This document shows positions 3,089-45,282 of a stretch of DNA of 64,000 bases, one piece after another. Location: NCBI GenBank assembly GCA_027923505.1, contig BROI01000022.1:248001-312000 (forward strand), read 5' to 3'. Source of the DNA: Mayamaea pseudoterrestris (taxonomy: Eukaryota). The notes beneath the pieces are model-generated. The model worked only from the letters and a program-made list of their open reading frames with translations, searched no databases and was not told where the DNA came from. The first letter of the stretch is position 1. Each line of letters starts with the position of its first letter. The translations under genes and the position numbers were made by a program.

Positions 3089-3110
3089 CTATTTATGAGT
3101 ACAATTTGGT

Positions 3111-13620: not shown

Positions 13621-13630
13621 GAAGCTTACG

Positions 13631-21715: not shown

Positions 21716-22136
21716 GCAGGATGAATTGAACCGACCGACTGCTTGACTGAGACTACCGGTTATTACGGAGAGCTGTCTTTCTTGTCCTTCTTCTTCTCTT
21801 TCACGCTTTAGTCGACTGCTTGTACTGCTCGTATCGCTCAAGAATCCAATGGCGTGAGTGTGAGCGAGTTTGGCGTGGCAAGGCGGCGCGCCTTGGTGCG
21901 CGCGAGTGGACGCTCGCAGCGGCAATGGTTGCGACACTCACAAGTTAAGCGCGACTCGGCCACGTCACGGAAATTTCGCCTCCACCATGACGAACAAGTC
22001 AAAACCCAGACTGACTCGAATCTCGAATGACACTCCTCACTCGCAAACGGCTCTGTAAGCATAGTACAGGCGTTATTCACAATCATTGACGGCGAACAAA
22101 GCAACGTCTACGGCACGACTCGTCATTGACCAACGA

Positions 22137-25100
22137 ATGAGGAAACATCATTCTCTGCTCTTGGCGAGTCTTTTCGTCGGACAAGCCATTGGCTTTCGTT
22201 CTTTTGCTGCATTTCCATCCAAAACCACGACAAATCGCCCAACGTTTCAACCAAAAATCAGATTAACTCAACTGCAGTTATCACTAGAAGATAGCTGGGA
22301 GGAAGCTCTCAAGTATATACCAACTGATTCCGTCAATTTGGAGTCCATTTCGCGACGACTCGCCGACACGAGATGGACGACACTCTTTAGCCGCGAATGG
22401 TTCTCTGATGTCTCACTCGCCGCCAAGGAAATGCAGGAACTCTACCTGCTGCTTCCACTCTGGGCAGAAGCTGGAATCATTGCTGCTCCTGTGCTAGCAG
22501 CAATCGGTGCGACACTGTACAAGCTTTCCTTTCCACACGACGACTATCGCAAAAACATGGAACCGTATCCACGAGGAGACTACGACCCAGTTGCAGCCCG
22601 AGCATACTACGCAAGATATCCCAAACTGGTTGCTCAACGTTGCTTGCAGCTATTTCGACTGGCAAACAAATTTATATTTAATATTTTACTGGACAAGTAC
22701 ATTTTGAAGCGCGAAGAAGCCATGATTTTGGTCCGGGCGAATGAATTGCTGGAGCTCATTACGCAGCTCGGACCGACGGCTATCAAAGTTGGGCAAGCTC
22801 TTTCGGTTCGTCCGGACTTGATTCCATCAGAATATGCGTCGGCACTGTCGACATTGCAGGATCAAGTACCTCCGTTCGACGGCCAAGCAGCCAAAGAAAT
22901 TTTGCTTCGCGAACTCGGATCAACTGCGTACGCTCAACTTAAGGGGCTAGGACTGGATGGTGGCGGCGGCAAGTCTAGCAAGGGGCCCATTGCATCCGCG
23001 TCAATCGGGCAAGTGTACAAGGCCAGCTTGGATGGCAAACATGTTGCCGTCAAGGTGCAACGACCAAACGTTTTGGCGGAGATTGCACTTGACTTGTATA
23101 TTGTTCGCGAGATTGGTGCGCCTCTCTATCAAATGTTTACCAATACGGCTTCTGATCTGCAGGGATTGGCGAATGAGTGGGGGCGCGGTTTCATCGCAGA
23201 GCTTGATTATGTGCGAGAAGCAAACAATACTATTCGTTTCAACCAGGGCTTGCGTGAGCGCAATCTTCTAGCCGTCTGCGCGCCGACAGTCCTTACGAAC
23301 TACGTTACGGAGCAGGTTCTTGTCACAGAATGGGTGGATGGCGTGAGGTTGGATCAGTCAGCCGCCGAGGATATTCCAAGATTGTGCAGCGTTGCCCTGA
23401 ACGCTTACTTGGTCATGCTACTCGAGGTACGTCGCGTGCCTTATCGACAAACGGCAGACGATCCGTTTACTGACGCGGCATCAATCTCACTCACTTTTCT
23501 GTTTTCTCCCTGCAGTTAAGGAGTCTGCATTGCGACCCACATCCAGGTGGGTGACTGGTACCTTCTGACTTTTTCTTGTTCGACTAAATCAATTCTTGCT
23601 CACGACGAAGTCTTCGTTTCCAGGAAATCTGTTGCGCACAACTGATGGTCGGCTATGTATTCTTGACCATGGCATGACGCTGGATATTGACCCCAACCTC
23701 CAGTATTCTTTACTGGAGTTTGTTGCGCACTTGACATCCAACAATTATCAGCAGCTACCCGAAGATTTGGTCGCTCTCGACTTTTTAAAGGCAGATAAGC
23801 TAGACTTTATTCGCCGTAGTGGCGCCTTGGAACCGTTCAAATATGTGTTGAAACAAGCGGGCCAGGGAGGCGGTGCCAAGGGCGTGCGTGAGCGCATTTT
23901 CCAAGACTATCGCGCAAAGTATGGCATCGACGCCACCGAGGATGAGCTCCGAGTAGAAATGAGGAAGGAAATGAAGGTATGCTTGGTTTCTGGGTTTGCC
24001 TCGCAAATAGCGCCTGCATGTTATATCCCGGTCGACCGTATTCCTACCCATTTTTTCTGTTGTCTTCACAGCAACAAATGGCAGATATTGTGGAGCGAGA
24101 AAGTGTAGCGACTGGGATCACATTGGAAGTGGAAGAGCTTCAAAGGCGGAATCAAGATGCGTTTAGAATTCCTGAGTGGTTTCTATACACGTAAGTGGGT
24201 AATACACGCTGCTTTATTTCGGCAGGAGTTGCGTCGCTCTATTCACATTCTCAATCAATTTTACTCAAAACTCAGATCACAAGCATTTCTCACGCTTGAA
24301 GGAGTGAGCTTGCAAGCAGATCCAAACTACAGCATCATTAAGAGTTGCTTCCCCTACATTGCCAAGCGGCTCGTCGGCGACAATGATCCTAGGGCCCGCA
24401 AAGCTCTCCGCGAGTTGCTGTATGGAGCTACGAATGCATTGGACATAAATCGCCTCACAGATCTTGCAGATGGCTTTTCGTCGTATACAACCACAACCAA
24501 AACCATCAACGAGCAAGCAGGTACAAAGCTTGATGAAATCAAATCGACGAGTGGCGAAATCGAGATGATATCAAAGGACCGCCAGCGGAAGACAAAGATG
24601 TTGGAAGCCGAAGCAGCTATTACGCTTGCCAAGGACACAGCCGATATTTTGCTAAAGCCCAATGACAATCTCATTCAAAGCGTGCTTATTGAGGAAGGTG
24701 TCTTGGCTGCGTCTGCCAATGTGAAAGATTCTATTCGACGGACCATGGTCACTGGCCCACGCAACCTTCGTGACTCGCTGCCTATGAATATTGGTTCCAT
24801 GCTTCCTCCACTACCGTTTGAGTTGCAGTTAGATCCATTTCTTGTCAAGACTGCACAAGAAGTGAAGGCTCAAGCGCTGACGGAAAGGCTTATGACTGTT
24901 ACAAGTCGACAGCTTCCAAATGCGGATCCAGAGTCGGCGGAAAACGCTCGCAAGGCCCTGCTAGACAGTTTGAAAAACCTTGACGCTGAACAGGCCGCGC
25001 TAATCTTGAAGGAAATTCGCGAAAATGTCCCTAAATTTTATCCCCTCTTCGGTCTGGTTGGAAGCAAGTTTGCTGCAAAGATGCTTCAAACTTTCAGCCA

Positions 25101-25221
25101 TAATATTGACACTACTTTGGATGAGCTTGCTCATTCCAATGCAAAACCCAATCGGTTATTATCAGCCGCTGCTAAACAACTCTCTGTGGTGGCACAAAGT
25201 GGAGCATCAACACTATCATAA
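22137..25221 (+). CDS. ABC1/UbiB atypical protein kinase, plastid-targeted; exons 22137-23426, 23516-23546, 23624-23976, 24072-24190, 24276-25221
   Basis: LGPTAIKVGQ, LQDQVPPF, ASASIGQVY, VAVKVQRP, ELDY, EWVDG, spliced LHCDPHPGN, LDHG; four GT-AG introns keep the frame; signal peptide + GFRSF leader. Confidence 0.93.
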
Positions 25222-25478
25222 TATGCTGCAAGTTTTGTTTTTAAAAAATGGACGAGCTTAATCATCATGTCTGTACTTTGTAAGATAGGTTGCCAGAGCT
25301 ACTGACGGTACCTGTCATCTAGAATGCCAGATCAGGCTTGGTAAGATGTCAATTCTGCAGCATCCTTTTGTAGTGAGTCATCATTAGGGAGCCAAAGAAG
25401 GATCTCCATGACAATTGTAAATTTAAGCGGAATGCATCATGCTATACCTAGTCACACAACGTAAGGAACATGGGTAAG

Positions 25479-28400
25479 CATGGAAATGGTCTGCAGGCTG
25501 GGTGTGGCCAACACCCCAAATTATGGAATCATACCACTACAATGCCCCGTGCCCTGGCCACCCAACAACCCAATGAGTCAGGCAAAACATGTCCAGGGTG
25601 TGCCATTGACATGAGGATGGTCTGAAATGGTGCACAACAGACTGCCGAAAGGCCTACACCATGGAATGGTCTGCAGGCTGGGGGTGGCCAACACCCCAAA
25701 TTATGGAATCATACCACTACAATGCCCCGTGCCCTGGCCACCCAACAACCCAATGAGTCAGGCAAAACATGTCCAGGGTGTGCCATTGACATGAGGATGG
25801 TCTGAAATGGTGCAAAACGGACTGCCTGGAGGCCTACACCATGGAATGGTCTGCAGGCTGGGTGTGGCCAACACCCCAAATTATGGAATCATACCACTAC
25901 AATGCTCTGTGCCCTGGCCACCCAACAACCCAATGAGTCAGGCAAAAGATGTCCAGGGTGTGCCATTGTCATGAGGATGGTCTGAAATGGTGCAAAATGG
26001 ACTGCCTGGATGCCTACACCATGGGTACGGCCTCCACGGTGGGTATGGCCAACACCACAAGTTGCAGATTCTCCCCTGTCAAACGCCCCATGCCCTGACC
26101 ACCCAGATACCCAATGAGTCAGGCAAAACATGTCCAGGGTATGCCATTGACAGGTGAAGAAACTCAAATGGTGCAAAAAGGACTGCCTGGAGGCTGACAC
26201 CATGGGTACGGCCTCCACTGTGGGTATGGCCAACACCACAAGTTGCAGATTCTTCCCTGTCAAACGCCCCATGCCCTGGCCACCCAAAAACCCAATGAGT
26301 CAGGCAAAACATGTCCAGGGTATGCCATTGACAGGTGCAGAGTCTCAAATGGTGCAAAACGGACTGCCTGGAGGCTGACACCATGGGTACGGCCTCCACT
26401 GTGGGTATGGCCAACACCACAAGTTGTCGATTCTGACCTGTCAAACGCCCCATGCCCTGGCCACCCAAATACCCAATGTGTCAGGCAAAACATGTCCAGG
26501 GTATGCCATTGACAGGTGCAGAGTCTCAAATGGTGCAAAAAGGACTGCCTGGAGGCTGAAAACATGGGTACGGCCCTCCACTGTGGGTATGGCCAACACC
26601 ACAAGTTGTCGATTCTGACCTGTCAAACGCCCCATGCCCTGGCCACCCAAATATCCAATGAGTCAGGCAAAACTTGTCCAGGGTATGCCATTGACAGGTG
26701 CAGAGTCTCAAATGGTGCAAAAAGGACTGCCTGGAGGCTGACACCATGGGTACGGCCTCCACTGTGGGTATGGCCAACACCACAAGTTGCAGATTCTTCC
26801 CTGTCAAACGCTCATGCCCTGGCCACCCAAATACCCAATGAGTCAGGCAAAACATGTCCAGGGTATGCCATTGACAGGTGCAGAGTCTCAAATGGTGCAA
26901 AAAGGACTGCCGGGAGGCTGACACAATGGGTACGGCCTCCACTGTGGGTATGGCCAACACCACAAGTTGTCGATTCTTACCTGTCAAACGCCCCATGCCC
27001 TGGCCACCCAAATACCCAATAACGCAGGCCAAACGTGTCCAGGTTATGTCATTGACAGGTGCAGAGTCTCAAATGGTGCAAAAAGGACTGCCTGGAGGCT
27101 GACACCATGGGTACGGCCTCCACTGTGGGTATGGGCAACACCACAAGTTGCAGATTCTTCCCTGTCCAACGCCCCATGCCCTGGCCACCCAAATACCCAA
27201 TGAGTCAGGCAAAACATGTCCAGGGTATGCCATTGACAGGTGCAGAGTCTCAAATGGTGCAAAAAGGACTGCCTGGAGGCTGACACCATGGGTACGGCCT
27301 CCACTGTGGGTATGGCCAACACCACAAGTTGTCGATTCTGACCTGTCAAACGCCCCATGCCCTGGCCACCCAAATACCCAATGTGTCAGGCAAAACATGT
27401 CCAGGGTATGCCATTGACAGGTGCAGAGTCTCAAATGGTGCAAAAAGGACTGCCTGGAGGCTGAAAACATGGGTACGGCCTCCACTGTGGGTATGGCCAA
27501 CACCACAAGTTGTCGATTCTGACCTGTCAAACGCCCCATGCCCTGGCCACCCAAATACCCAATGAGTCAGGCAAAACTTGTCCAGGGTATGCCATTGACA
27601 GGTGCAGAGTCTCAAATGGTGCAAAAAGGACTGCCTGGAGGCTGACACCATGGGTACGGCCTCCACTGTGGGTATGGCCAACACCACAAGTTGCAGATTC
27701 TTCCCTGTCAAACGTCCCATGCCCTGGCCACCCAAATATCCCATGAGTCAGGCAAAACTTGTCCAGGGTATGCCATTGACAGGTGCATAGTCTCAAATGG
27801 TGCAAAAAGGACTGCCGGGAGGCTGACACAATGGGTACGGCCTCCACTGTGGGTATGGCCAACACCACAAGTTGTCGATTCTGACCTGTCAAACGCCCCA
27901 TGCCCTGGCCACCCAAATACCCAATAATGCAGGCCAAACATGTCCAGGGTATGCCATTGACAGGTGCAGAGTCTCAAATGGTGCAAAAAGGACTGCCTGG
28001 AGGCTGACACCATGGGTACGGCCTCCACAGTGGGTATGGCCAACACCACAAGTTGTCGATTCTGACCTGTCAAACGCCCCATGCCCTGGCCACCCAAATA
28101 CCCAATGAGTCAGGCAAAACATGTCCAGGGTATGCCATTGACAGGTGCAGAGTCTCAAATGGTGCAAAAAGGACTGCCTGGAGGCTGACACCATGGGTAC
28201 GGCCTCCACTGTGGGTATGGCCAACACCACAAGTTGCAGATTCTTCCCTGTCAAACGCCCCATGCCCTGGCCACCCAAATACCCAATGTGTCAGGCAAAA
28301 CATGTCCAGGGTATGCCATTGACAGGTGCAGAGTCTCAAATGGTGCAAAAAGGACTGCCTGGAGGCTGACACCATGGGTACGGCCTCCACGGTGGGTATG

Positions 28401-31400
28401 GCCAACACCACAAGTTGCAGATTCTTCCCTGTCAAACGCCCCATGCCCTGGCCACCCAAATATCCAATGAGTCAGGCCAAACATGTCCAGGGTATGCCAT
28501 TGACAGGTGCAGAGTCTCAAATGGTGCAAAAAGGACTGCCTGGAGGCTGACACCATGGGTACGGCCTCCACGGTGGGTATGGCCAACACCACAAGTTGTC
28601 GATTCTGACCTGTCAAACGCCCCATGCCCTGGCCACCCAAATACCCAATGAGTCAGGCCAAACATGTCCAGGGTATGCCATTGACAGGTGCAGAGTCTCA
28701 AATGGTGCAAAAAGGACTGCCTGGAGGCTGACACCATGGGTACGGCTTCCACGGTGGCCGTCCAACACCACAAGTTGTCGATTCTGACCTGTCAAACGCC
28801 CCATGCCCTGGCCACCCAAATACCCAATGAGTCAGGCCAAACATGTCCAGGGTATGGCATTGACAGGTGCAGAGTGCAAAAAGGACTGCCTGGAGGCTGA
28901 CACCATGGGTACGGCCTCCACGGTGGGTATGGCCAACACCACAAGTTGTCAATTCTGACCTGTCAAACGCCCCATGCCCTGGCCACCCAAATACCCGATG
29001 AGTCAGGCAAAACATGTCCAGGGTATGCCATTGACAGGTGCAGAGTCTCAAATGGTGCAAAAAGGACTGCCTGGAGGCTGACACCATGGGTACGGCCGTG
29101 GTCGTGCCTTTAACGGGTATGTGGGCCCAACACCACAAGTTGTCGATTCTGACCTGTCAAACGCCCCATGCCCTGGCCACCCAAATACCCAATGAGTCAG
29201 GCCAAACATGTCCAGGGTATGCCATTGACAGGTGCAGAGTCTCAAATGGTGCAAAAAGGACTGCCTGGAGGCTGAAAACATGGGTACGGCCTCCACGGTG
29301 GGTATGGCCAACACCACAAGTTGTCAATTCTGACCTGTCAAACGCCCCATGCCCTGGCCACCCAAATACCTGATGTGTCAGGCAAAACATGTCCAGGGTA
29401 TGCCATTGACAGGTGCAGAGTCTCAAATGGTGCAAAAAGGACTGTCTGGAGGCTGACACCATGGGTATGGCCTCCATGGTGGGTATGGCCAACACCACAA
29501 GTTGTCAATTCTGACCTGTCAAACGCCCCATGCCCTGGCCACCCAAATACCCAATGAGTCAGGCCAAACATGTCAAGGGTTAGTTATTGACAGGTGCAGA
29601 GTGCAAAAAGGACTGCCTGGAGGCTGACACCTTGGGTTCGGCCTCCACGGTGGGTATGGCCAACACCACAAGTTGTCAATTCTGACCTGTCAAACGCCCC
29701 ATGCCCTGGCCACCCAAATACCCGATGTGTCAGGCAAAACATGTCCAGGGTATGCCATTGACAGGTGCAGAGTCTCAAATGGTGCAAAAAGGACTGTCTG
29801 GAGGCTGACACCATGGGTATGGCCTCCACGGTGGGTATGGCCAACACCACAAGTTGTCAATTCTGACCTGTCAAACGCCCCATGCTCTGGCCACCCAAAT
29901 ACCCAATGAGCGGGTATGCCATTGACAGGTGCAGAGTCTCAAATGGTGCAAAAAGGACTGCCTGGAGGCTGACACCATGGGTATGGCCTCCACGGTGGGT
30001 ATGGCCAACACCACAAGTTGCAGATTCTGAACCTGTCAAACGCCCCATGCCCTGGCCACCCAAATACCCAATGAGTCAGGCCAAACATGTCCAGGGTATG
30101 CCATTGACAGGTGCAGAGTCTCAAATGGTGCAAAAAGGACTGCCTGGAGGCTGAAAACATGGGTACGGCCTCCACGGTGGGTATGGCCAACACCACAAGT
30201 TGTCAATTCTGACCTGTCAAACGCCCCATGCCCTGGCCACCCAAATACCCAGGCAAAACATGTCCAGGGTATGCCATTGACAGGTGCAGAGTCTCAAATG
30301 GTGCAAAAAGGACTGCCTGGAGGCTGACACCATGGGTAGGCGTCTGGATGGCCAACACCACAGGCAATTCTGACCTGTCAAACGCCCCATGCCCTGGCCA
30401 CCCAAATACCCAATGAGTCAGGCAAAACATGTCAGAGGGTATTTGCCATTGACAGGTTGCAGAGTCTCAAATGGTGCAAAAGGACTGTCTGGAGGCTGAC
30501 ACCATGGGTAAGGCCTCCATGGGTGGGTATGGCGCAACACCACGTTGGCTTCTTCCGGACCTGTCAAATGCCCCATGCCCTGGCCAACAAATACCCAATG
30601 AGGTCAGGCAAAACATGTCCAAGGAAGCCATTGACAGGTGCAGAGTCTCAAATGGTAAAGGACTGCTCTGGAGGCTGACACTATGGGGACGGTCCCTCCA
30701 CGGTGGGTATGGCCAACACCACAAGCTGTCGATTCTGACCTGTCAAACGCCCCATGCCCGGCCACCCAAATACCCAATGAGTCAGGCAAACATGTCCAGG
30801 GATGCCATTGACAGGTGCGTCTCAAATGGTGCAAAGGACTGCCTGAGGCTGACACTCATGGGTACGGCCTCCACGGTGGCATGGCCAACACAACATGTTG
30901 TCGATTCTGACCTGTCAAACGCCCCATGCCCTGGCCACCCAAATACCCAATGAGTCAGGCAAAACATTTCCAGGGTATGCCATTGACAGGTGCAGAGTCT
31001 CAAATGGTGCAAAAGGACTGCCTGGAGGCTGACACCATGGCATGGCAGGTGGCCAACACCACAAGTTGTCGATTCTGACCTGTCAAATGCCCCATGCCCT
31101 GGCCACCCAAATACCCAATGAGTCAGGCCAAACATGTCAAGGGTAAGCCATTGACAGGTGCAGAGTCTCAAATGGTGCGACTGCCTGGAGGCTGTGACTA
31201 CAAATGGCCTCCACGGTGGAAATGGCTAACACCACAATTTGTAGAACCTGTCAAACGCCCCATGCCCTGGCCACAAATACCCAATAATTCAGGCCAAACA
31301 TGTCCAGGTATGCCATTGACAGGCAGAGTCTCAACAAAAAGGACTGCCTGGAGCTGACACCATGGGTACGGCCTCCACGGGGTATGGCCAACACCACAAG

Positions 31401-33788
31401 TTCGCATGCCCTGGCCACCCAACACCTGATGAGTCAGGCAAAAACATGTCCATCGATGCCACTGACAGGTAAGTCTCCAAATGGTGCAAAAGGATGCCTG
31501 GAGGTGAAACGGCCTCCACGGTGGGTACATGGCCAACACCACAAGCTGTCGATTCTGACCTGTCAAACGCCCCATGCCCTGGCCCCCCAAATACCCAATG
31601 AGTCAGGCAATAACACGTCCAGGGTATGCCAATGACAGGTGCAGACAAATGGGGCAAAGGATCGGCCTAGGCTGACACACCATTGGTACGGGGCATCCAG
31701 GGGGGGGGTATGGCCAACACCACAAGTTGTCAATTCTGACCTGTCAAACGCCCCATGCCTTGGCGACCCAAATACCCAATGAGTCAACCCAAACATGTCA
31801 AGGGTATGCCTTTGACAGGTGCAGAGTCTCAAATGGTGCAAAAAGGACTGCCTGGAGGCTGACACCATGGGTACGGCCTCCACGGTGGGTATGGCCAACA
31901 CCACAAGCTGTCGATTCTTACCTGTCAAACGCCCCCATGCCCCTGACCACCCAAATACCCAATGAGTCAGGCCAACATGTCCAGGGTATGCCAGACAGGT
32001 GCAGAGTCTCAAATGGTGCAAAAAGGACTGCCTGGAGGCTGACACCATGGGTACGGCCTCCACGGTGGGTATGGCCAACACCACGCCAAATGTGATTCTG
32101 ACCTGTCAAACGCCCCATGCCCTGGCCACCCAAATACCCAATGAGTCAGGCTAAACATGTCCAGGGCTTCCACACACAGGTGCAGAGTCTCAAAATGGTG
32201 CAAAAAGGGACTGCCTGGAGGCTGACACCCATGGGACGCCCCCGGTATGGCCAAAACCACAAGTTGCCGACCTGACCTGTCAAATGCCCATCCTCACACA
32301 CCAAATACCCAATGAGTCAGGCAAAACATGTCCAGGGTATGCCATTGACAGGTGCAGAGTCTCAAATGGCAAAGGACTGCCTGGAGGCTGACACCATGGG
32401 CACGGGCCTCCACGGTGGAAATGGCCACCACAATTTGTAGATTCTGACCTGTCAAACGCCCCACATGCCCTGGCCACCCAAATACTCCACAATCAGGCCA
32501 AACATGTCCAGTGGGTATGCCATTGACAGGCAGAGTCTCAAATGGTGCAAAAGGACTGCCTAGGCTGACACCATGGGTACGGCCTCCACGGTGGGTATGG
32601 CCAACACCATGTTGTCGCCCGCCCTGGCCACCCAAAATACCTGATGAGAGTCAGGCAAAACATGTCCACTGTATGCCAGAGCTCAAATGGTGCAAAAGGA
32701 CTGCCTGAGGCTGACACACAATGCCTCCACGGTGGGTAACAGCCAACACCACAAAAATGATTCTGACCTGTCAAACGCCCCATGCCCTGGCCACCCAAAT
32801 ACCCAATGAGTCAGGACACAACACGTCCAGGGTATGCCATTGACAGGTGCAGAGTCTCAAATGGTGCAAAAAGGACTGCCTGGAGGCTGACACCATTGGT
32901 ACGGCCTCCAGGGTGGGTATGGCCAACACCACAAGTTGTCGATTCTGACCTGTCAAACGCCCCATGCCCTGGCCTGCCCAAATACCATAATGAGTCAGCC
33001 AAACATGTCGGGCGGGCATGCCATTGACAGGTGCAGACTCAAATGGTGCAAAGGACTGCCTGAGGCTGACACCATGGGTACGGTCTCCACGGTGGGTATG
33101 GCCAACACCATTAAGTTGTGACCGACTCGTCAACGCCCCCATGCCCTGACACCCAATACCCAATGAGTCAGGCCAACATGTCCAGGTAGCCATGGGAGTG
33201 CAGAGTCTCAAATGGTGAAACGGAGGCCGGGGGATGGCCACCACAAGTTGTCGATTCTGACCTGTCAAACGCCCCATGCCCTGGCCACAAATACCCAATG
33301 AGTCAGGCCAGCCATGTCCAGGTTGCCATTGACAGGTGCAGAGTCTCAAATGGTGCAAAAGGACTGCCTGGGAGGCTGACACCATGGGTACGCTCCAGGG
33401 TGGGTATGGCCAACACCACAAGTTGTCGATTCTGACCTGTCAAACGCACCATGCCCTGGCCACAAATACCAATGAGTCAGGCAAAACATGTCCAGGGTAT
33501 GCCATTGATACAGGTGCAGAGTCTCAATGGTGCAAAGGACTGTCTGGAGGCTGACACCAAGGGTACGGCACGGGTATGGCCACACCATGTTGTCACTTGC
33601 TGTCAACGACCCACATGCCCTGGCCACCAAATACCCAGAGTCAGGCAAAACATGTCCAGGGTATGCCATTGACAGGTAGAGTCTCAAAATGGTGCAAAAA
33701 GGACTGCCTGGAGGCTGACACCAAGGGTACGGCCTCCACGGTGGGTATGGCCAACACCACAAGTTGTTGATTCTGACCTGTCAAATGC
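25479..33788. repeat. Satellite 1: tandem array of ~46 x 181-bp monomers (first three are a 180-bp divergent subfamily)
   Basis: Unit CCATGGGTACGGCCTCCACTGTGGGTATGGCCAACACCACAAGTTGTCGATTCTGACCTGTCAAACGCCCCATGCCCTGGCCACCCAAATACCCAATGAGTCAGGCAAAACATGTCCAGGGTATGCCATTGACAGGTGCAGAGTCTCAAATGGTGCAAAAAGGACTGCCTGGAGGCTGACA repeated head-to-tail; noisy after ~30200. Confidence 0.99.
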
Positions 33789-34289
33789 TAATGTCTATTC
33801 CCCAAACTTATACAGTGATTTGCATGACCACCAAGTTCTTGATTGACCTTACCAAAAGCATAATGATAGGTGGAGATACTTCAAATGATAGGGATCACCA
33901 ATTCTGTGGGTGCTGCCCTCCATACGTGATACAGTCACACGGAATAAGCGTATCTACTCCTGTTTGCCAGAAACATGGAGTTGTCAACATTATGAAGTGC
34001 TATAAGTTCCTCATGTATACCTTGTCAAAAGGTGGCAATGGCTTAAAGACAATCACATCCATAGTTTGATTGGTTGGTTATAGGCATCTTGTTGTTTCTA
34101 TTTGGCCCATCTACTCACAGCTTTCCCAAAACTTAGGCTTGCCAGGTTTATTTTGGGTTTGTTGGCCTCATTGATACTTTGGCTGAAAGTGGCAATGTTT
34201 GTAATTGATGGGGATGCCCAGCGGACCTGGTGGTGTAGTGTGGCAACGTATGAGATACTCCAGCTATGTGGAAGCAAGCTTATAAATTC

Positions 34290-37200
34290 CCCAACAACTT
34301 GTTGGATTTGCATCAGTCCACCTTAAGGGACTTCTTGCCAGAACGCGATTTTGGAATACAAAGAACATTATGTTTCAAATTAAGGGGACTCAAAGGCTTG
34401 TCACCTTGGGTGTGGAAACCATCATTTTCCAGAATGATGGGGATGCCAGCGGTGCACCTTTTTGCACAGGGATCATCAGCGCTGCCTGCGCTGCCTGAAA
34501 TCCTTTCAATTCATGGGTCATGATGAGCCAATGCTTTGGTCAGTTGCACCCATTCCAGTCTCCAACACCACGTATGCCATGGTGAGACTCAGCTTGCAGA
34601 TCCAACAACTTGTTGGATCTGCTAGCAGTGCACCTCAAGTGGCATTTCTGACTGCCAGAATTGCCTGCCAATGGTCTGAAAAAATATCTATTGATAAAGG
34701 CTTGTCACCTGGTGCTACCACCATCATACGTGACCATTGGCCTCATGGTTGAATGTGGCAGCTGTGCACCATGTTGGCTATTGGGATTATCAGCGCGTGC
34801 CTTCAGAGGCCTCTGGGAAAACCCATTCATGTTGGTGACATGATGGGCCTATGATTTGGTCGGTTGCACCCATTTCAGACTCCAAACACGTGTGCCATGG
34901 TGAGACTCATCTTGAAGTTCAAACAACTTGTTGGATCTGCTAGTACCAGTGGCACTTCTTGACTGCAAGCAACGGCCTGCCAATTCTGGAATACAAAGAA
35001 CATTTTTCGGTTTGGCCAATCAAAGGCTCGGCTTGTCACCTTGGGGTGTGGAAACCTCTTTTGCCAGTCACCGTGCATTCCCAAGATAATGTCTGCGGCC
35101 AGTGGGTGCAGCGTATGGCTGCCTCAGCGCTGCCTTCTGAGCCCTGAAATCCTTTCCAATTCATGTTTGGTGTCATGATGGGCCAATGCTTTGGTCAGTT
35201 GCATCCATTTCAGTCTCCAACACCACGTATGCCATGGTGAGACTCAGCTTGCAAATTCAACAATTTGTTGGATCTGCTAGCAGTCCACCTCGAGTGGCAC
35301 TTCTGACTGCCAGAACGGCCTGCCAATTCTGGAATACAAAGAACATTATGTTTCAAATTCAAAAGGACTCAAAGGCTTGTCACCTTGGGGGTGGAAACCA
35401 TCCTTTTGCCAAGAAACACCGCACATTCAACCAATGGTTGAATGTGCCAGTGGTGCACCCTTTTTGGCTACAGGGATCATCAGCCATGCATTCTGAGCCC
35501 TGAAATCCTTTCCGATTCATGTTTGGTGTCATGATGGGCCAATGATTTGGTCAGTTGCACCCATTCCAGTCTCCACCACCACGTATGCCATGGTGAGACT
35601 CGGCTTGCAGATTCAACAACTTGTTGGATCTGCTAGCAGTGCACCTCAAGTGGCATTTCTGACTGCCAGAATTGCCTGCCAATTCTGGAATACAAAGAAC
35701 ATTATGTTTCAATTTGATTGGGACTCAAAGGCTTGTCACCTTGGGTGTGGAAACCATCATTTTGCCAAGAGACTCCGCACATTCAACCAATGGGGTGGTT
35801 GAATGTGCCAGCGGTGCACCTATTTTGGCTACAGGGATCATCAGCGCTGCCTTCTGAGCCCTGAAAACCTTTCCAATTCATGTTTGGTGTCATGATGGGC
35901 CAATGCTTTGGTCAGTTGCATCCATTTCAGTCTCCACCAACACGTATGCCATGGTGAGACCCAGCTTGCAGATCCAACAACTTGTTGGATCTGCTAGCAG
36001 TGCACCTCAAGTGGCACTTCTGACTGCCAAAACGGCCTGCCAATTCTGGAATACAAAGAACATTCTGTTTCAATTTGATTAGGACTCAAAGGCTTGTCAC
36101 CTTGGGTGTGGAAACCATCATTTTGCCATGAGACTCCACACATTCAACCAATGGTTGAATGTGCCAGCGATGCACATATTTTGGCTACAGGGATCATCAG
36201 CGCTGCCTTCTGAGCCCTGAAATCCTTTCCAATTCATGTTTGGTGTCATGATGGGCCAATGATTTGGTCAGTTGCACCCATTCCAGTCTCCAATACCACG
36301 TATGCCATGGTGATACATGGCTTGCAGATCCAAATATTTGTTGGATCTACTAGCAGTGCACCTCAAATGGCATTTCTGACTGCCAGAAATGCCTACCAAT
36401 TCTGAATACAAAGACATTCTGTTTATATTTGATTAGGAGTCAAAGGCTTGTCACCTTGGGTGTGGAAACCATCATTTTGCCACGAGACTCCGCGATTCAA
36501 CAAATGGTTGAATGTGCCAGTGGTGCACCCATTTTGGCTACAGGGATTATCAGCGCTGCCTTCTGAGCCCTGAATCCTTTCCAATTCATGTTTGGTGTCA
36601 TGATGAGCCAATGGTTCAGTCAGTTGCACTCATTGCAGTCTCTACCACCATGTGTGCCATGGTGAGACTCAGCTTGCAGATCCAACAACTTGTTGGATCT
36701 GCTAGCAGTGCACCTCAAGTGGCACTTCTGACTGCCAGAACGGCCTGCCAATTCTGGAATACAAAGAACATTATGTTTCAAATTCAAAAGGACTCAAAGG
36801 CTTGTCACCTTGGGTGTGGAAACCATCATTTGCCAAGAGATTCCGCACATTCAACCAATGGTTGAATGTGCCAGCGGTGCACCCATTTTGGTGACAGGGA
36901 TCATCAGCGCTGCCTTCTGAGCCCTGAAATCCTTTCCAATTCATGTTTGGTGTCATGATGGGCCAATGATTTGGTCAGTTGCACCCATTCCAGTCTCCAA
37001 TACCACGTATGCCATGGTGATACTCGGCTTGCAGATCCAAATATTTGTTGGATCTGCTAGCAGTGCACCTCAAGTGGCACTTCTGACTGCCAGAACGGTC
37101 TGCCAATTCTGGAATACAAAGAACATTATGTTTCAATTTGATTAGGGCTTAAAGGCTTGTCACCTTGGGTGTGGAAACCATCATTTTGCCATGAGACTCC

Positions 37201-39313
37201 GCGATTCAACAAATGGTTGAATGTGCCAGTGGTGCACCCATTTTGGCTACAGGGATTATCAGCGCTGCCTTCTGAGCCCTGAAACCTTTCCGATTCATGT
37301 TTTTGGTGTCTTGATGGGCCAATGATTTGGTCAGTTACACCCATTCCAGTCTCCAACACCACGTATGCCATGGTGAGACTCAGCTTGCAGATTCAACAAC
37401 TTGTTGGATCTGCTAGCAGTGCACCTCAAGTGGCACTTATGACTGCCAGAACAGCCTGCCAATTCTGGAACACAAAGAACATTATGTTTCAAATTCAAAA
37501 TGACTCAAAAGCTTGTCACCTTGGGTGTGGAAACCATCATTTTGCCATGAGACTCCACACATTCAACCAATGGTTGAATGTGCCAGCGATGCACATATTT
37601 TGGCTACAGGGATCATCAGCGCTGCCTTCTGAGCCCTGAATCCTTTCCAATTCATGTTTGGTGTCATGATGAGCCAATGGTTCAGTCAGTTGCACTCATT
37701 GCAGTCTCCACCATGATGTATGCCATGGTGATACTCGGCTTGCAGATCCAAATATTTGTTGGATCTGCTAGCAGTGCACCTCAAGTGGCACTTCTGACTG
37801 CGAGAACTGCCTGCCAATTCTGGAATACAAAGAACATTATGCTTCAAATTCAAAAGGACTCAAAGGCTTGTCACCTTGGGTGTGAAACCCATCCTTTTGC
37901 CATGAGAATCCGCACATTCAACCAATGGTTGAATGTGCCAGCGGTGCACCCTTTTTGGCTACAGGAATCATCAGCGCTGCCTTCTGAGCCCTGAAAACCT
38001 TTCTGATTCATTTTGTTGGTGTCATGATGGGCCAATAATTTGGTCAGTTGCACCCATTCCAGTCTCCACCACCACGTATGCCATGGTGAGACTCGGCTTG
38101 CAGATCCAAATATTTGTTGGATCTGCTAGCAGTGCACCTCAAGTGGCACTTATGACTGCCAGAACGGCCTGCCAATTCTGGAACACAAAGAACATTATGT
38201 TTCAAATTCAAAATGACTCAAAGGCTTGTCACCTTGGGTGTGGAAACCATCATTTGCCAAGAGGTTCCGCCAGCGGTGCACCCATTTTGGTGACAGGGAT
38301 CATCAGCGCTGCCTTCTGAGCCCTGAAATCCTTTCCAATTCATGTTTGGTGTCATGATGGGCCAATGATTTGGTCAGTTGCACCCATTCCAGTCTCCAAT
38401 ACCACGTATGCCAAGGTGATACTTGGCTTGCAGATCCAAATATTTGTTGGATCTGCTAGCAGTGCACCTCAAGTGGCACTTCTGACTGCGAGAACTGCCT
38501 GCCAATTCTGGAATACAAAGAACATTATGTTTCAATTTGATTAGGGCTCAAAGGCTTGTCACCTTGGGTGTGGAAACCATCATTTTGCCATGAGACTCCG
38601 CACATTCAACCAATGGTTGAATGTGCCAGCGGTGCACCCATTTTGGCTACAGGGATCATCAGCGCTGCCTTCTGAGCCCTGAAATCCTTTCCAATTCATG
38701 TTTGGTGTCATGATTGGCCAATGCTTTGGTCAGTTGCACCCATTCCAGTCTCCAACACCACGTATGCCATGGTGAGACTCGGCTTGCAGATTCAACAACT
38801 TGTTGGATCTGCTAGCAGTGCACCTCAAGTGGCACTTCTGACTGCCAGAACGGCCTGCCAATTCTGGAATACAAAGAAAATTATGTTTCAAAATAAAAAT
38901 GACTCAAAGGCTTGTCACCTTGGGTGTGGAAACCATCATTTGCCAAGAGACTCCGCACATTCAACCAATGGTTGAATGTGCCAGCGGTGCACCCTTTTTT
39001 GGCTGCAGGGATCATCAGCACTGCCTTCTGAGCCCTAAAAACCTTTCTGATTCATTTTTTTGGTGTCATGATGGGCCAATGCTTTGGTCAGTTGCACCCA
39101 TTCCAGTCTCCAACACCACGTATGCCATGGTGAGACTCAGCTTGCAGATCCAACAACTTGTTGGATCTGCTAGCAGTGCACCTCAAGTGGCACTTATGAC
39201 TGCCAGAACGGCCTGCTGATTCAGGAACACATAGAACATTATGTTTCATATTCAAAATGACTCAAAGGCTTGTCACCTTGGGTGTGAAACCCATCCTTTT
39301 GCCATGAGACTCC
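34290..39313. repeat. Satellite 2: tandem array of ~14 x ~356-bp monomers, each a diverged dimer with two 27-bp palindromes
   Basis: TCAT(G/T)TTT anchor at 35161, 35517, 35878, 36234, 36586, 36941, 37295, 37652, 38008, 38340, 38696, 39052; degenerate copies to the left. Confidence 0.98.
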
Positions 39314-39329
39314 TGACACGATGCAGTTC

Positions 39330-40691
39330 CAGTTCGTACGGCTGCAACGATTCCTCACCCTCTGTAGTCGGTTTCCAAGTGAGCGGGATGATCAGTCCTT
39401 TACCTTGGTTTATCCTACAGGGGTCTTATTCTACAAAACGCTAGTTGATTAAGCAGTTCTCTAGAAAGTGAGTTGATTTACGATCTGTCGAGAAAGAGTG
39501 ATTGATCAGATGGCTCTTTCAAGACCATTCACGATAGTGAATACTAATCTTGTTTAATCGTGCCTGCGGCTGGCACACATGCAATATTTCAATGACGTAG
39601 TTGTGAGTAGATGTCTTTTCTGGTACCGCAACGGAGGTTCGAGTACTATGCTCGTTCGCCCCCGGCGACGTCTAGGTTCGCGTCAAGCGACTGGACTAGA
39701 TCGTCATTGTGACAACGTCAGCGCCATTCATTTGCACTAGCCTTGCTAGAATCAAAGACCTGCGTGCCTTGCTTGCGACAACTTTCCTGCAAGCGAATTT
39801 TTGCGCGAAGCTTGGTTGCGTTAACTGTCAAAGCAGACTTGTCCATTGTAGAGCTGTCTCCATCGCCAGACGCATTGGATTCAAGTTCCTTGGAGTCAAA
39901 AGCCTCCTGCTCGCTGTCCATCTTGACCTTGGCTGGCTGCTTGCGGCTGCCTTTCTGTGGCATGCTTGTGCGCTTGAGAGACTTGCTGGCACTGTTACCA
40001 ATACTGGGATTGACAACGGAGTCACTGCCACAAGCTTGCTTGGGAATAGCACCAATGTCAACGGTGTTGGAAGCAGCGCTGGGAGCAGTCGTGCTCATAT
40101 CCAAACAAATCTTTGACGCATGCGGCTTGTACTTAAAATGATTGCTGGTGCTGACGGCTTCATTCGAAAGGTTTTCCTTGAGTGGAACAACTTGCAAAAT
40201 GACATGGAAGAGCCCATCTTTCTGCGGCAAAGCTGTTGACAAGGCATTCTGCGTGGTCCAGCTGTCGTACAAATCAATGAGTTCAAGGTCACCGTTCTTT
40301 CCAAGGAGATACACCTCGAAACCAAACTTGTTGATCAGAGTTGGCAGATTTTGCGGATCACCACCCGTCTTGGCGACGCGCCATCCGTGACTGACTTGGG
40401 TCCCATAATCATCCATCGTTTCAAGCGTCTCAAGGAGGATGGCGATGATGGTGCCGTCTTGGAGAATGGATCAAACAAGACTTTTGCGCAAGGTGTAGTG
40501 ATTGTCAATGACATTCTCTTGACTGCACTGATGATACTATCATTGCCGTCAATGACCTTCTTCATTCCCAGACAACTTGTGTTCAAGCTTGTCTTGTCGT
40601 TGCTTTTGTCCATGGAATGTCCAGTGGCTTGATGTTTTGCATGCGCTTCAGGCGTGAGGAACGCCAGCTTGGTCGTGACAACATCAGCCAT
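39330..40691 (-). pseudogene. Disrupted ORF of unknown family (gene or TE accessory gene relic) running into satellite 2
   Basis: ATG 40691 frame shifts near 40520 into the 39718-40416 frame (SAVK/ENVIDNHYTLRKSLV*SILQDGTIIAILLETLETMDDYG); TGA stops at 40473, 39720 and 39521 interrupt protein-like sequence. Confidence 0.55.
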
Positions 40692-43560: not shown

Positions 43561-45282
43561 ATGTTCCTGCATCGTCCCCTCCTATCGCTACGAACAGCAG
43601 CAGCAAGTCGCTCCTCGCTATTGTCAAAATGTCGCCCTGCCTCGTCATCATCACCGCACCTTGCCACCACATTCTTTTTGCCGGATCCATCCGACGAAAA
43701 TGCCCATCGCCACCACCAGCAACTCACCAAGATTGTCGCCACCATTGGACCAACCTCGGAGCAGGCGGAACCAATGTTGCAGGTTGTATCGGCAGGCATG
43801 ACGGTGATGCGACTCAACTTTTCGCACGCGACGGTGGAGGAAGTGGAGTTGCGGTGCGCCAATCTGCAAGCGGCGCAGCAAGCAGTTGGTGTAGACAATA
43901 ACATGCGCGCAATATTACTTGATACCAAGGTGAATATATGAAATTGAGGATATTGCGTGAAATATGATTGTCACTACTTTGCTCACTCTTGAATTCTTGT
44001 ACAGGGACCCGAGATTCGCACCGGAAAGCTCGCCAACGATCACAGCGGACACGAAACCATGACACTCACGGCTGGCAATACTATAACGCTGCATACCAGT
44101 CAAGACATTCGCGATGCTGGAAGCACTGAGAGTGATTTATTCATTGACTATCCTGGATTAGCAAAGTGCCTCAAACCATCCATGAAGGTACTTTTGGATG
44201 ATGGTGCCATTCTATTGAATGTCCAATCCACCAATATTGAGCAAGGAACTGTCACTTGCACCATTCAAAACACTGGCGACTTGAGGTCACGGGCCGGCAT
44301 CAATCTACCACTCGCTGACATTAGTGACTTGCCTGCCATGTCGGCCAAGGACAAGGCTGACATTATGTATGGCATGACCAAGGACATTGACTTTGTCGCG
44401 GCCAGCTTTGTCCAAAACGCCCAAGCCGTTCGTGACATTCGAGCGCACATTCAAGACTGCGCCAACCAGCTTGGCTGGACCAGCAATGAGCCTCTTCCGC
44501 TGATTGTCAGCAAGATTGAAACGGCCGGTGCGCTCACACAGTTTGACGAGATTCTGCAGGAATCGGATGCCATCATGGTCGCCCGCGGTGACTTGGGCGT
44601 GGAGATTCCACTGGCGCAGGTGACAAACGCACAAAAGGAAATGGTGGCTGCCTGCAACGCGTCGGGCGTTCCGGTGATTGTTGCGACGCAAATGCTGGAA
44701 AGCATGAGCAAGAATCCGCGACCAACGCGAGCCGAAGTGAGTGATGTCACGAATGCAGTCTATGATGGAGCCGACTGTGTCATGCTTTCTGGTGAGACAG
44801 CAAAGGGAAAGTATCCGTCGGAAACAATTACTTTCATGAATGAGATTATATTAAGTGCGGAGCGATATGCTGATTCCGGCGCGCTTGGACGACCAGCGAC
44901 GCACTCGTTTCTGGCGAGCCCCATGTCGCGCGACTCTGCCGTGGCGCGGGCGGCTGTGGCATCGTCGGAGGAGCGACCGGATGCGGCAGCCATTTTGGTG
45001 TTGACAAACAAACTGGATACTGGTCTGCCTAAACTGGTGTCATCGTTTCGGCCAAATGTGCCCATTTTGGCGTTTGTGTCGTCAGCCAAGCTAGGACGCC
45101 AGTTGCAGCTACACCGCGGCATTATTCCCATTGTTGGTCTAGATAATGTAACCAATGCGGAAAGGTTCAAGCAAGCTGTTGGCATGGCGTGCAGTATGGG
45201 CTACGTCAAAAGTGGGAACGAAGTCGTAGTTATCTCGGTGACCGACGACAAAGAAGCGACAATGAAGATTGTAACAGTCTAA
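43561..45282 (+). CDS. PK: Pyruvate kinase with mitochondrial-type presequence; intron 43930-44004
   Basis: TKIVATIGP, RLNFSH, spliced LDTK|GPEIRTG, SKIET, MVARGDLGVE, ATQMLESM, PTRAEVSDV, MLSGETAKG; Arg/Ser-rich acid-free N-terminus MFLHRPLLSLRTAAASRSS. Confidence 0.97.

Follow-up and report, generated by a model that had tools for sequence, protein, structure and literature searches.

Existing descriptions depict diatom genomes as satellite-poor and their centromeres as short, AT-rich and free of repeats, a view that underlies the design of diatom episomes and artificial chromosomes. The locus described here, in Mayamaea pseudoterrestris, a proposed freshwater model with a compact genome, consists of two satellite arrays lying next to each other between genes, and raises the question of what kind of chromatin such a block forms and whether it could be part of a centromere. 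All positions refer to the window, i.e., the whole 64-kb stretch of DNA that was analysed.

Two satellites between genes

Read along the plus strand, the block comprises array A (25477..33785), a spacer (33786..34289) and array B (34290..39321), the two satellites being unrelated by sequence and both running head to tail on the same strand. Array A contains one partial and 47 head-to-tail monomers of about 181 bp (8,309 bp, 54% GC). Tandem Repeats Finder reported a 181-bp array at 25544-31402 (32.9 copies, 90% matches), with a degraded continuation to 33785, and all 48 matches of the monomer profile were on the plus strand within 25477-33779. Array B contains one partial and 14 monomers of about 356 bp (5,032 bp, 47% GC; Tandem Repeats Finder, 34745-39313, 13.0 copies, 87% matches), and its profile gave 15 plus-strand matches, all within 34290-39304. 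Neither profile matched elsewhere in the 64 kb, so the window holds no solo copies of A or B. The first-pass annotation had described an 8.3-kb array of 181-bp units and a 5-kb array of about 356-bp units, some 0.5 kb apart and starting about 260 bp after a gene, and these dimensions are borne out, the spacer being 504 bp long and array A starting 255 bp past the end of the preceding ORF (25221).

That ORF (24109..25221, plus strand, from the ORF list; 370 aa), which bears a weak PH-domain match in Pfam, lies outside the satellite block. The left junction (25222..25476) is unique sequence where CpG depletion sets in: by blastn it matched only itself in the window and resembled neither the A nor the B consensus, and the CpG observed/expected ratio (o/e), about 0.9-1.1 over the left boundary gene region up to 25000, falls to 0.52 at 25001-25250 and 0.34 at 25251-25500. 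The spacer (42% GC) is likewise unique, with only a self-match within the window and nothing significant against either consensus, and is as CpG-poor as the arrays. On the right, also outside the block, lies MPSEU_000912900 (39721..40691, minus strand), an annotated orphan of 300 aa in two exons (40691-40524 and 40458-39721) with 100% identity to its NCBI protein; a second contig carries an annotated protein identical to it. It is followed by the pyruvate kinase gene MPSEU_000913000 (43561..45279, plus strand; Pfam PK and PK_C, mapped by tblastn), 100% identical to a M. pseudoterrestris protein on a 668,940-bp contig. The gene-free span is thus 14.5 kb (25222-39720) and not the 18-kb gene desert first claimed, nor is the sequence up to 43.4 kb decayed, since 39322-43431 is free of direct and inverted repeats and of A or B profile matches (blastn was also run on the first 399 bp), has a normal CpG o/e of 0.85 and contains MPSEU_000912900. 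No transposase, integrase or reverse-transcriptase domain was found in the 16 ORFs tested at 39.7-43.9 kb, and Pfam marks the genes of the left flank as ordinary cellular ones. Active genes at 255 and 400 bp from the arrays, without a transposon-rich zone, are unusual for classical heterochromatin.

The nearest contig end is 25 kb or more from the locus, and genes flank it over at least 25 kb in either direction. The 64-kb window contains no TTAGGG dimer, and neither consensus contains TTAGGG or CCCTAA; the absent telomere motifs and the flanking genes speak against a subtelomeric position of this block.

Within array A, the left-edge copies A1-A3 (25545-26085) are diverged, the identity to the consensus rising from 78.9 through 82.2, 87.8 and 94.5 to 98.3% over A1-A5. 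They are followed by a homogeneous core, A4-A18 (26086-28798), in which 15 of 15 monomers measure 179-182 bp, and by A19-A47 (28799-33785), a stretch rich in deletions where 20 of 29 monomers lack at least 5 consensus positions, as against 0 of 18 in A1-A18. These deletions (5-46 nt) are discrete multi-base events, not scattered single-base errors. No higher-order period was seen in A, the mean identity staying at 0.894-0.903 at lags 1-12; its longest A/T run is 7 nt and its inverted repeats are internal only. Array B is also diverged at its left edge (B1-B3) and ends abruptly on the right, with identities of 82.9, 84.4, 89.7 and 94.9% for B1-B4, 97.5% for B13 and 92.9% for B14. In both arrays, therefore, the inner copies are homogenised and the left-edge copies progressively diverged.

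Between the two halves of the B monomer blastn gave only a 23-nt match. Global alignment of consensus positions 1-186 with 187-356, in contrast, found 113 of 163 aligned pairs identical and scored 13, above every one of 40 shuffles (-15.4 +/- 4.8, maximum -4), so that the B monomer is, by this alignment, an old, diverged dimer of 186- and 170-bp subunits (about 178 bp), in agreement with the first view of it as 2 x ~178. Both subunits carry 13-nt inverted termini, consensus positions 344-356 being the exact reverse complement of positions 2-14, and the junctions therefore read arm, one base, arm, which places a 27-nt palindrome (13 + 1 + 13) every 170-186 bp, as exemplified from consensus self-complementarity by the B7/B8 junction (36845..36871). 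Of the 13 junctions, 6 have both arms intact and 8 show no more than one mismatch, and the palindrome forms a hairpin in both the minimum-energy and the centroid DNA fold. A central palindrome marks the boundary between the two subunits (37027..37061 in B8): consensus positions 170-204 match their own reverse complement (35 nt, 91%), 4 of the 14 monomers have a perfect 13 + 1 + 13 core and 7 have a core with no more than one mismatch, and a minus-strand self-match of the B profile is seen once in every monomer. Five of the 14 monomers (B6, B8, B10, B11 and B12) have a variant centre, and over B5-B10 the two centre types alternate, giving a weak 712-bp period.

A and B are non-coding satellites, with monomers in the 150-500 bp range and the head-to-tail tandem arrangement that define satellite DNA. 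On each strand, the consensus trimer has 3-4 (A) or 9-16 (B) stop codons, with all frames hit, and the array ORFs tested in translation had no protein relatives except one satellite-derived environmental ORF. A tandem array of RNA genes (5S rDNA, snRNA, tRNA) was ruled out by Rfam, where a search of 25000-44000 with an E cut-off of 1 returned a single chance-level lncRNA match (E 0.81), and by an ARAGORN search, which found 0 tRNA genes. As single-stranded DNA, A and B fold better than their shuffles (z = -3.3 and -3.25, respectively); a 10-bp WW periodicity is absent from both monomers (p about 0.4).

CpG depletion and the abundance of family A

The CpG content of the block departs sharply from that of its surroundings. 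All 14 of the 1-kb windows in 25001-39000 have a CpG o/e of 0.22-0.33, while all others lie at 0.69-1.30; by element, the ratio is 0.26 in A, 0.23 in the spacer and 0.27 in B, versus 1.06 and 1.02 in the flanks. The boundaries fall at about 25.0-25.5 kb and 39.25-39.3 kb, the ratio being back to 0.69-1.25 from 39251 on. This four-fold depletion is confined to the span of about 14 kb formed by the arrays and the spacer, and is accompanied by an excess of TpG and CpA (o/e in the A and B consensus monomers, 2.1 and 1.78 for TpG, 1.49 and 1.74 for CpA). With only 4-5 CpG sites per consensus as their basis, the C-to-T rates are higher at CpG than at other Cs in both A (0.108 vs 0.019) and B (0.118 vs 0.043). 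Transversions at CpG are also raised in A (0.125 vs 0.027), so deamination is not the sole process there. As a control, a 42-bp minisatellite at 13108-13624 has a CpG o/e of 1.05. We infer that the arrays and the spacer carry the signature of long-term cytosine methylation; in the available text of PMC9998398, CG methylation of diatom transposons depends on DNMT5a.

The abundance of family A was estimated from the contigs of two sequencing runs belonging to two studies, X1 (possibly from the same strain as the assembly) and X2, placed on the left flank, which served as single-copy reference, and on three A monomers (45,427 of 555,133 contigs placed in X1 and 6,065 of 182,933 in X2). For the three A bins, summed contig depth averaged 3.10, 2.61 and 4.55 million in X1, against a flank of about 129, and 504, 459 and 525 thousand in X2, against about 28.6. 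Depth in A therefore exceeds that of the flank about 1.6-3.5 x 10^4-fold across runs and monomers, a ratio of summed contig depth and not a copy number, whose conversion to copies is rough because about half of the placed contigs fit two places. Depth within the monomers is also very uneven, position 25908 reaching only 25,491 in X1 and 327 in X2. The 24 loose contig ends listed are all A-like except one in the flanking gene. Contigs of both runs (X1 record 8, 22171-25514; X2 record 15, 22043-25514) bridge the left junction between gene and satellite, which had been named as a point to verify in raw reads; these short-read contigs end 38 nt into the first partial monomer, and none spans array A.

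The published genome figures are 27-31 Mb (30.6-Mb assembly) and 19% repeats, and Table S3 of the genome paper has a 'Satellites' entry of 0 elements and an 'Unclassified' one of 2.26 Mb. Judged by contig depth, A is probably a major satellite that is largely missing from the 30.6-Mb assembly. Being far commoner in the raw data than one locus explains, it points to hidden silent chromatin, and this hidden A-bearing chromatin might include the centromeres.

Silent heterochromatin, centromere or by-product

We give about an even chance to the reading that the block is compact, silent, cytosine-methylated satellite heterochromatin in an otherwise gene-dense chromosome stretch. In such a scenario, the arrays would grow, shrink and homogenise through unequal exchange and gene conversion, both least active at array edges. 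The block would be kept CG-methylated, as diatom transposons are, via DNMT5-type maintenance, deamination of methylated CpG would then erode CpG, and methylation would give way a few hundred bases or less from the flanking genes. The majority of A copies would reside in large blocks that are lacking or collapsed in the 30.6-Mb assembly, the 47 local copies being either a small interstitial outpost or the collapsed image of a larger block, and the role of the block would be that of structural or selfish heterochromatin. The original proposal of a centromere or a heterochromatic knob is thereby shifted towards heterochromatin, which the four-fold CpG depletion and the abundance of A both favour indirectly, while its centromeric part stays a candidate: family A is the obvious candidate (peri)centromeric repeat of the species, and the locus itself at most a putative centromere.

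Dyad symmetry is enriched at centromeres, and the folding of both satellites beyond their shuffles, together with the 27-nt palindromes of B at nucleosome spacing, accords with a block that is a centromere or the immediate pericentromere, in which CENH3 would bind to A, present as a single large array on each chromosome, and B would be a flanking pericentromeric satellite. Such a regional centromere of the satellite type, in contrast to the short AT-rich ones of Phaeodactylum, would also suit the nucleosome length of the A monomer (181 bp) and of the B subunits (170-186 bp), the extreme abundance of A and the position of the locus inside a contig with genes on both sides. Against it stand the 54% GC of A with its longest A/T run of 7 nt, the missing WW periodicity in either monomer, and an abundance heuristic that fails for maize knobs and is not known to have been tested in stramenopiles. 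It also goes against the P. tricornutum centromeres, the only ones known to be experimentally defined in diatoms, which, in the accessible part of 10.1101/096016, combine GC below 33% over 500 bp or more with long A+T runs and an absence of repeats, and against the predicted ones of Fistulifera solaris (36-42% GC, without highly repeated elements). Taking from the same source the criteria of at least 500 bp below about 33% GC and a cluster of 100-bp windows at or below 32%, we found a lowest 500-bp GC of 41.8% in 25477-39321 (in the spacer) and 40% in the whole 64-kb window, and no 100-bp window at or below 32% GC in any 3-kb window over the arrays (at most 2 elsewhere). A Phaeodactylum-type centromere is thereby rejected for this window, the locus being all repeats with only short A/T runs in A. 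The lack of a low-GC candidate within the 64 kb speaks for the satellite centromere, but the window covers less than 10% of the contig, and a low-GC centromere may lie elsewhere on it. Our literature search found no CENH3 mapping in M. pseudoterrestris, and two metagenome scans bearing on the number of arrays per chromosome were blank. On balance, we regard a centromere at this locus as possible but doubtful. The broader proposition, that the centromeres of M. pseudoterrestris lie on a megabase-scale, GC-rich, CG-methylated 181-bp satellite with the palindrome-studded B alongside, seems to us, from sequence and depth, unlikely.

The contrast between a depth of at least 10^4 times single copy and 47 assembled copies raises the question of whether the assembly is partly an artefact, in which a longer A array was collapsed or two A-bearing loci were joined through the repeat, so that the array would not truly measure 8.3 kb, and the left genes might not be linked to the spacer, B and the right genes. 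According to the consulted parts of the genome paper, the nanopore read N50 is 8.6 kb, close to the array length, and haplotigs were purged with coverage cut-offs (-l 5, -m 25, -h 80); the change in mid-array from the clean A4-A18 to A19-A47, with deletions in 20 of 29 monomers, and the short-read contigs that stop 38 nt into the first partial monomer point the same way. However, the edges of A look natural, with graded divergence on the left and degraded copies on the right, its deletions are unlike scattered single-base errors, the left gene-to-A junction is backed by two runs, and the spacer is CpG-depleted too, as expected if A, spacer and B had long been one methylated domain. We consider such an artefact rather improbable, and a collapse would alter the size of the block, not its nature. 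Very improbable, in our estimate, is that the arrays are mere by-products of mobile elements with no chromosomal role, B having been amplified in tandem from a short MITE-like element, some 178 bp long and bounded by terminal inverted repeats, and A stemming from another element. The 13-nt inverted termini that bound each B subunit fit an MITE origin, the identical copy of the neighbouring orphan gene on another contig hints at recent duplication or mobility, and satellites derived from MITEs and retrotransposon-borne repeats are reportedly documented elsewhere (PMC7004042 and PMC10048060). Yet the remaining 50 kb of the window are free of solo A or B copies, the arms are separated by a single base with no target-site duplication to be seen, and the ORFs and genes on either side are free of transposase, integrase and reverse-transcriptase domains (the 16 ORFs) or ordinary cellular ones (left flank); a mobile origin would, moreover, be compatible with a present role as heterochromatin.

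If the heterochromatin reading is true, the block would be a clean, sequence-defined piece of diatom heterochromatin whose methylation has sharp limits, set a few hundred bases away from active genes, and would be useful for the study of how such limits arise. If A really amounts to at least 10^4 depth-equivalents, the published size and repeat content of the genome (27-31 Mb, 19% repeats, 'Satellites 0') would be too low, and whether all diatoms share the Phaeodactylum type of centromere would become directly testable in M. pseudoterrestris. Satellite centromeres, if true, would give diatoms their first regional centromere of the satellite type, with an origin inside the raphid pennates, the lineage of Phaeodactylum and Fistulifera with their short AT-rich centromeres, and would mean that the published 30.6-Mb genome misses several megabases of centromeric DNA. 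Even if non-centromeric, A would still be the first major diatom satellite family described, as far as the literature searched shows.

Comparison with known satellites and centromeres

The centromeric repeat of Arabidopsis is about 178 bp long, and A resembles such plant and animal centromeric satellites in its tandem, non-coding monomer of about 180 bp and, judged by contig depth, its very high copy number, the Mayamaea arrays further sharing the homogenised core with diverged edges, the putative CG-methylation signature and the short dyad symmetries. They differ in that A has 54% GC and is not AT-rich, lacks a higher-order repeat, and that active genes come to within 255-400 bp of the arrays, a transposon-rich pericentromere being absent. 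Maize knobs are built of a 180-bp knob repeat and the 350-bp TR-1, and their likeness to satellites of about 180 and 350 bp lying side by side at an interstitial site concerns sizes only and may be coincidence. Maize-type knobs are defined by their cytology, neocentromere activity and a driver kinesin, and in Mayamaea A and B are mutually unrelated; in maize, the tandem repeat of highest abundance is that of the knobs and not of the centromere (Melters et al.).

With the centromeres of P. tricornutum and the predicted ones of F. solaris the locus shares a non-genic position between genes in a compact pennate genome. Those centromeres, as far as the available sources describe them, are short, of low GC, with long A+T runs and repeat-free, in contrast to the 47-54% GC and all-repeat make-up seen here, so that the first-pass remark that the locus is not typical of model diatoms stands. 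Among other stramenopiles, Phytophthora parasitica also has two satellite families, PpSat1 and PpSat2, of which PpSat2 is GC-rich (57%), and the accessible portion of PMC7290008 proposes the more abundant one as centromeric on abundance alone, its array lengths being unresolved in the assembly. In that account, the PpSat2 monomer is 142 bp, a length other than those in Mayamaea, the high-copy arrays of PpSat1 are found where transposons are many and genes few, unlike the Mayamaea arrays, which abut genes, and assembled copies number in the hundreds, against at least 10^4 depth-equivalents for A. The repeat of about 98 bp in Ectocarpus, as given in the available part of PMC11541908, adjoins telomeres and contains telomere motifs, unlike the Mayamaea monomers, which contain no TTAGGG motif and lie in a window free of telomere repeats, among genes on both sides.

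Anatomy of the two satellite arrays

The 181-bp satellite (array A, 25477-33785 on the forward strand) covers 8,309 bp, made up of a 66-bp partial unit and 47 monomers (A1-A47, numbered from the left), and the 356-bp satellite (array B, 34290-39321, forward strand) covers 5,032 bp with a partial unit and 14 monomers (B1-B14). A spacer of 504 bp (33786-34289) separates them, and the leftmost A unit starts 255 bp past the end (25221) of the final left-side ORF; the array sizes, the gap of ~0.5 kb and the gene-to-array distance proposed in the first-pass annotation all agree with these measurements. Tandem Repeats Finder placed the 181-bp repeat within 25544-31402 (32.9 copies, 90% matches), beyond which a degraded extension reaches 33785, and the 356-bp repeat within 34745-39313 (13.0 copies, 87% matches). 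Profiles built from the monomers gave 48 matches for A, all 48 on the forward strand at 25477-33779, and 15 forward-strand matches for B at 34290-39304, with none for either elsewhere in the 64 kb.

Within array A, identity to the consensus climbs inward from the left edge over A1-A5 (78.9, 82.2, 87.8, 94.5 and 98.3%), and the 15 monomers A4-A18 all measure 179-182 bp and match the consensus at 92-99% identity. From A19 to A47, 5-46 consensus positions are missing in 20 of the 29 monomers, compared with none of the 18 in A1-A18. No higher-order period was found in A, the mean identity being 0.894-0.903 at each lag from 1 to 12. The GC content of the array is 54%, as against 47-50% in the flanks; its monomer carries several short inverted repeats and, when folded as single-stranded DNA, surpasses 100 of 100 shuffles (z = -3.3). 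Since the consensus trimer contains stop codons (four on one strand and three on the other), the single Rfam match over the array region is at chance level (E 0.81) and tRNA genes are absent from that region, array A is not a gene array.

The monomers of array B approach the consensus from B1 to B4 (82.9, 84.4, 89.7 and 94.9% identity), and the right end is abrupt, with copies near the consensus (B13 97.5%, B14 92.9%). A blastn comparison of the unit halves returned almost no match and suggested that the unit is not 2 x 178, a view overturned by global alignment of consensus positions 1-186 with 187-356, in which 113 of 163 aligned pairs are identical and the score is 13, against -15.4 +/- 4.8 with a maximum of -4 in 40 shuffles. 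A score above every shuffle shows B to be an old dimer, and the 2 x ~178 structure claimed at first reading is thereby upheld. The B subunits possess 13-nt inverted termini at both ends, so that each junction consists of an arm, one base and an arm, that is, a 27-nt palindrome every 170-186 bp. Both arms are intact at 6 of the 13 monomer junctions, the central palindrome is perfect in 4 of the 14 monomers, and the DNA fold, with z = -3.25 against 20 shuffles, shows both palindromes as hairpins. A variant palindrome centre is present in five of the 14 monomers (B6, B8, B10, B11 and B12), which alternate with the other type across B5-B10, and this alternation suggests a weak 712-bp period in B.

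No homology was detected between A and B (best blastn E 0.09, global scores inside the shuffle range), and the two families are unrelated; the spacer is unique and bears no relation to either. Elsewhere in the window lie a 42-bp minisatellite (13108-13624; 12 copies, 90% matches, GC 42%), which also shows a higher-order period of 254 bp (2 copies, 97%), and a largely palindromic 51-bp unit repeated 2.2 times (3110-3219, 85% matches), located where GC is lowest in that region.

CpG depletion and the boundaries of the block

The CpG observed/expected ratio, 1.06 for the left flank and 1.02 for the right, falls to 0.26 over A, 0.23 over the spacer and 0.27 over B. In 1-kb steps, all 14 windows in 25001-39000 lie at 0.22-0.33 and every other window at 0.69-1.30; the drop sets in at 25.0-25.5 kb, and the ratio recovers at 39.25-39.3 kb, where B stops. 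TpG and CpA are in excess in both consensus monomers (1.5-2.1 times expectation), and C-to-T changes are 3-6 times commoner at CpG than at other Cs, counts that rest on 4-5 CpG sites per consensus; A also shows more transversions at CpG, alongside C-to-T. The 42-bp minisatellite at 13.1 kb, which served as a control, has a normal ratio of 1.05, and therefore the depletion is not general to tandem repeats. Judged from the sequence, such a pattern is what CG methylation maintained over a long time would be expected to leave behind; in diatoms this kind of methylation targets transposons and depends on DNMT5a (PMC9998398).

The right boundary differs from that drawn in the first-pass annotation, in which decayed sequence continued to 43.4 kb. 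The segment 39322-43431 contains neither internal repeats nor a match to the A or B profile, its first 399 bp have no blastn similarity to A or B, and its CpG ratio of 0.85 is near normal. It also contains an annotated two-exon gene, MPSEU_000912900 (39721-40691, reverse strand), and the supposed 18-kb gene desert therefore shrinks to a gene-free span of 14.5 kb (25222-39720). The product of this gene, which adjoins array B, has 300 aa and no Pfam or protein atlas match; a protein 100% identical to it is encoded by MPSEU_000350100 on another, 1.24-Mb contig, and the adjacent pyruvate kinase gene is present once. Taken together with the abrupt, near-consensus end of B and the return of CpG to normal immediately past it, the identical copy and the single pyruvate kinase suggest that a recent duplication or insertion truncated array B. 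The 16 ORFs tested at 39.7-43.9 kb carry no transposon domains; their only domain matches are a sub-threshold Med12 and the first exon of pyruvate kinase. The divergent intergenic region of 2.9 kb between MPSEU_000912900 and pyruvate kinase (40692-43560) is long for this genome, repeat-free and near normal in CpG, and GC over 500 bp reaches its minimum for the whole window there (40% at 42471).

Among the flanking ORFs, all of an ordinary eukaryotic kind, are those for an RCC1-repeat protein, an ABC1 kinase, an AAA ATPase and an amidohydrolase. The M. pseudoterrestris pyruvate kinase is matched at 100% identity by the ORF at 43993-45282, whose next-best matches are from other diatoms. Frames of 781 aa (3520-5865, forward strand), 504 aa (48233-49747, reverse strand) and 821 aa (49819-52284, reverse strand) have no Pfam match, and the last of these sits where GC is highest in the window, at 56-58%.

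Abundance of the A family and integrity of the assembly

Seven coded sequencing runs were found, all in the form of contigs, and for depth the contigs of four were placed on 19000-26085, a segment that comprises left-flank genes, the junction and three edge monomers of A, and no B. In run X1, with 45,427 of 555,133 contigs placed, the flank depth is 108-187 (typically 129) and the three A bins reach 3.10, 2.61 and 4.55 million. In run X2, which comes from a different study (6,065 of 182,933 contigs placed), the A bins stand at 504, 459 and 525 thousand over a typical flank depth of 28.6; its flank is flat across genes and intergenic DNA (20.6-40.8) and its contigs break as in X1, so that X2 behaves as DNA. 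Each bin value is the position-weighted mean of summed contig depth (140.8 recomputed versus 140.9 tabulated for flank bin 19711-19947). The A/flank ratio is 2.0-3.5 x 10^4 in X1 and 1.6-1.8 x 10^4 in X2, with the proviso that summed contig depth is not copy number and that half of the placed contigs fit two places. At face value, and as orders of magnitude only, there would be ~2 x 10^4 A monomers if contigs were placed at every fit and 5-8 x 10^4 if they were placed once, or roughly 3-14 Mb of A in total. Depth varies greatly inside the monomer, with only 25,491 (X1) and 327 (X2) at position 25908, and the loose contig ends among those listed are all A-like except one in the flanking gene.

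As 47 local copies cannot yield such depth, the qualitative conclusion that the A family is a major genome component is safe. Coverage-based purging discards contigs of very high depth, and k-mer estimators of genome size ignore very high-copy k-mers. The genome paper reports purging by coverage cut-offs (PMC9724779), and A is probably under-represented in the assembly. According to the same source, the nanopore assembly (read N50 8.6 kb, 52x) totals 30.6 Mb over 41 contigs, k-mers put the genome at 27.2 Mb, and repeats, for the most part Ty1/Copia, make up 19% (PMC9724779). Its main text is without the words "centromere", "satellite" and "telomere", and its Table S3 gives 0 elements under Satellites and 2.26 Mb of Unclassified repeats, figures that set no usable bound on A (PMC9724779).

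The check proposed at first reading, that sequence should span the satellite-to-gene junctions, succeeded on the left side, where X1 record 8 (3,343 nt, 22171-25514) and X2 record 15 (3,472 nt, 22043-25514) each continue from the left gene into the partial A monomer for its first 38 nt; no contig was seen spanning the arrays. The assembled 8.3-kb A may represent a longer array in collapsed form, as the read N50, the abundance of A and the change of array character at A19 would all allow. Collapse alone would not alter the nature of the block, and a true mis-join of array-bearing loci strikes us as quite improbable. Within the left flank, 19566-19743 is represented by two allelic contigs (depth 72 and 78 in X1, 19 and 10 in X2), at about half the neighbouring depth, which fits the heterozygous diploid of the genome paper.

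In runs X6 and X7, which are labelled as two other organisms and belong to the same study as X1, the flank is found only in short scattered pieces at a contig depth of ~2-7, and the depth on A (25545-26085) is 7-26 thousand. We read this signal as trace DNA of M. pseudoterrestris and not as a satellite conserved in other species, and the A satellite is a very sensitive marker of such traces in other libraries. The best-conserved 22-mers of A and of B each had 0 matches in JGI metagenomes, from which the species may be absent. An ORF of 180 aa from array A retrieved 1 protein among 17 candidates, an environmental catalogue ORF, and an ORF of 138 aa from array B had 0 matches in 1.84 billion representatives, neither result being a measure of abundance. 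The environmental ORF retrieved with array A, the 101-aa "protein" P0121, is 79-83% identical to the reverse strand of 25453-33788 across 1.67 A monomers and is spurious, a translated A repeat; a related A variant occurs, then, in an environmental data set.

Heterochromatin, centromere and known satellite systems

We file the block as putative satellite heterochromatin, an already known category. That it is a centromere, as first proposed, is a possibility we regard with some doubt. The nucleosome-sized unit lengths, the dyad symmetry in both satellites and the great abundance of A speak for it, and the 64-kb window, less than a tenth of the contig, offers no AT-rich alternative; however, the nucleosome-type 10-bp periodicity is absent from both monomers, the WW signal being not above shuffles (p 0.40 for A and 0.37 for B). 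Centromeres of P. tricornutum are characterized by <33% GC over at least 500 bp, by clusters of 100-bp windows at or below 32% GC, by long stretches of A+T and by a lack of repeats (10.1101/096016). In Fistulifera solaris, GC is 36-42% in the predicted centromeres, which are without highly repeated elements. The arrays depart from both on every criterion: no 100-bp window in them is at or below 32% GC, the lowest 500-bp GC of the array-spacer span is 41.8% and falls in the spacer, and A/T runs in A reach at most 7 nt. A subtelomeric identity of the locus is excluded by the absence of telomere repeats or motifs from the window and the monomers, together with genes over at least 25 kb on both sides.

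A search of the literature outside subscription journals found no diatom satellite family or satellite centromere, a result that is not proof of absence, and it found nothing on the repeats of M. pseudoterrestris. In a recent centromere atlas of 325 genomes (10.64898/2026.09.17.752431), the words diatom and stramenopile are absent. If CENH3 binds the block, it would represent a new form of centromere. Among the stramenopiles, the closest precedent is provided by the satellites PpSat1 and PpSat2 of Phytophthora parasitica.
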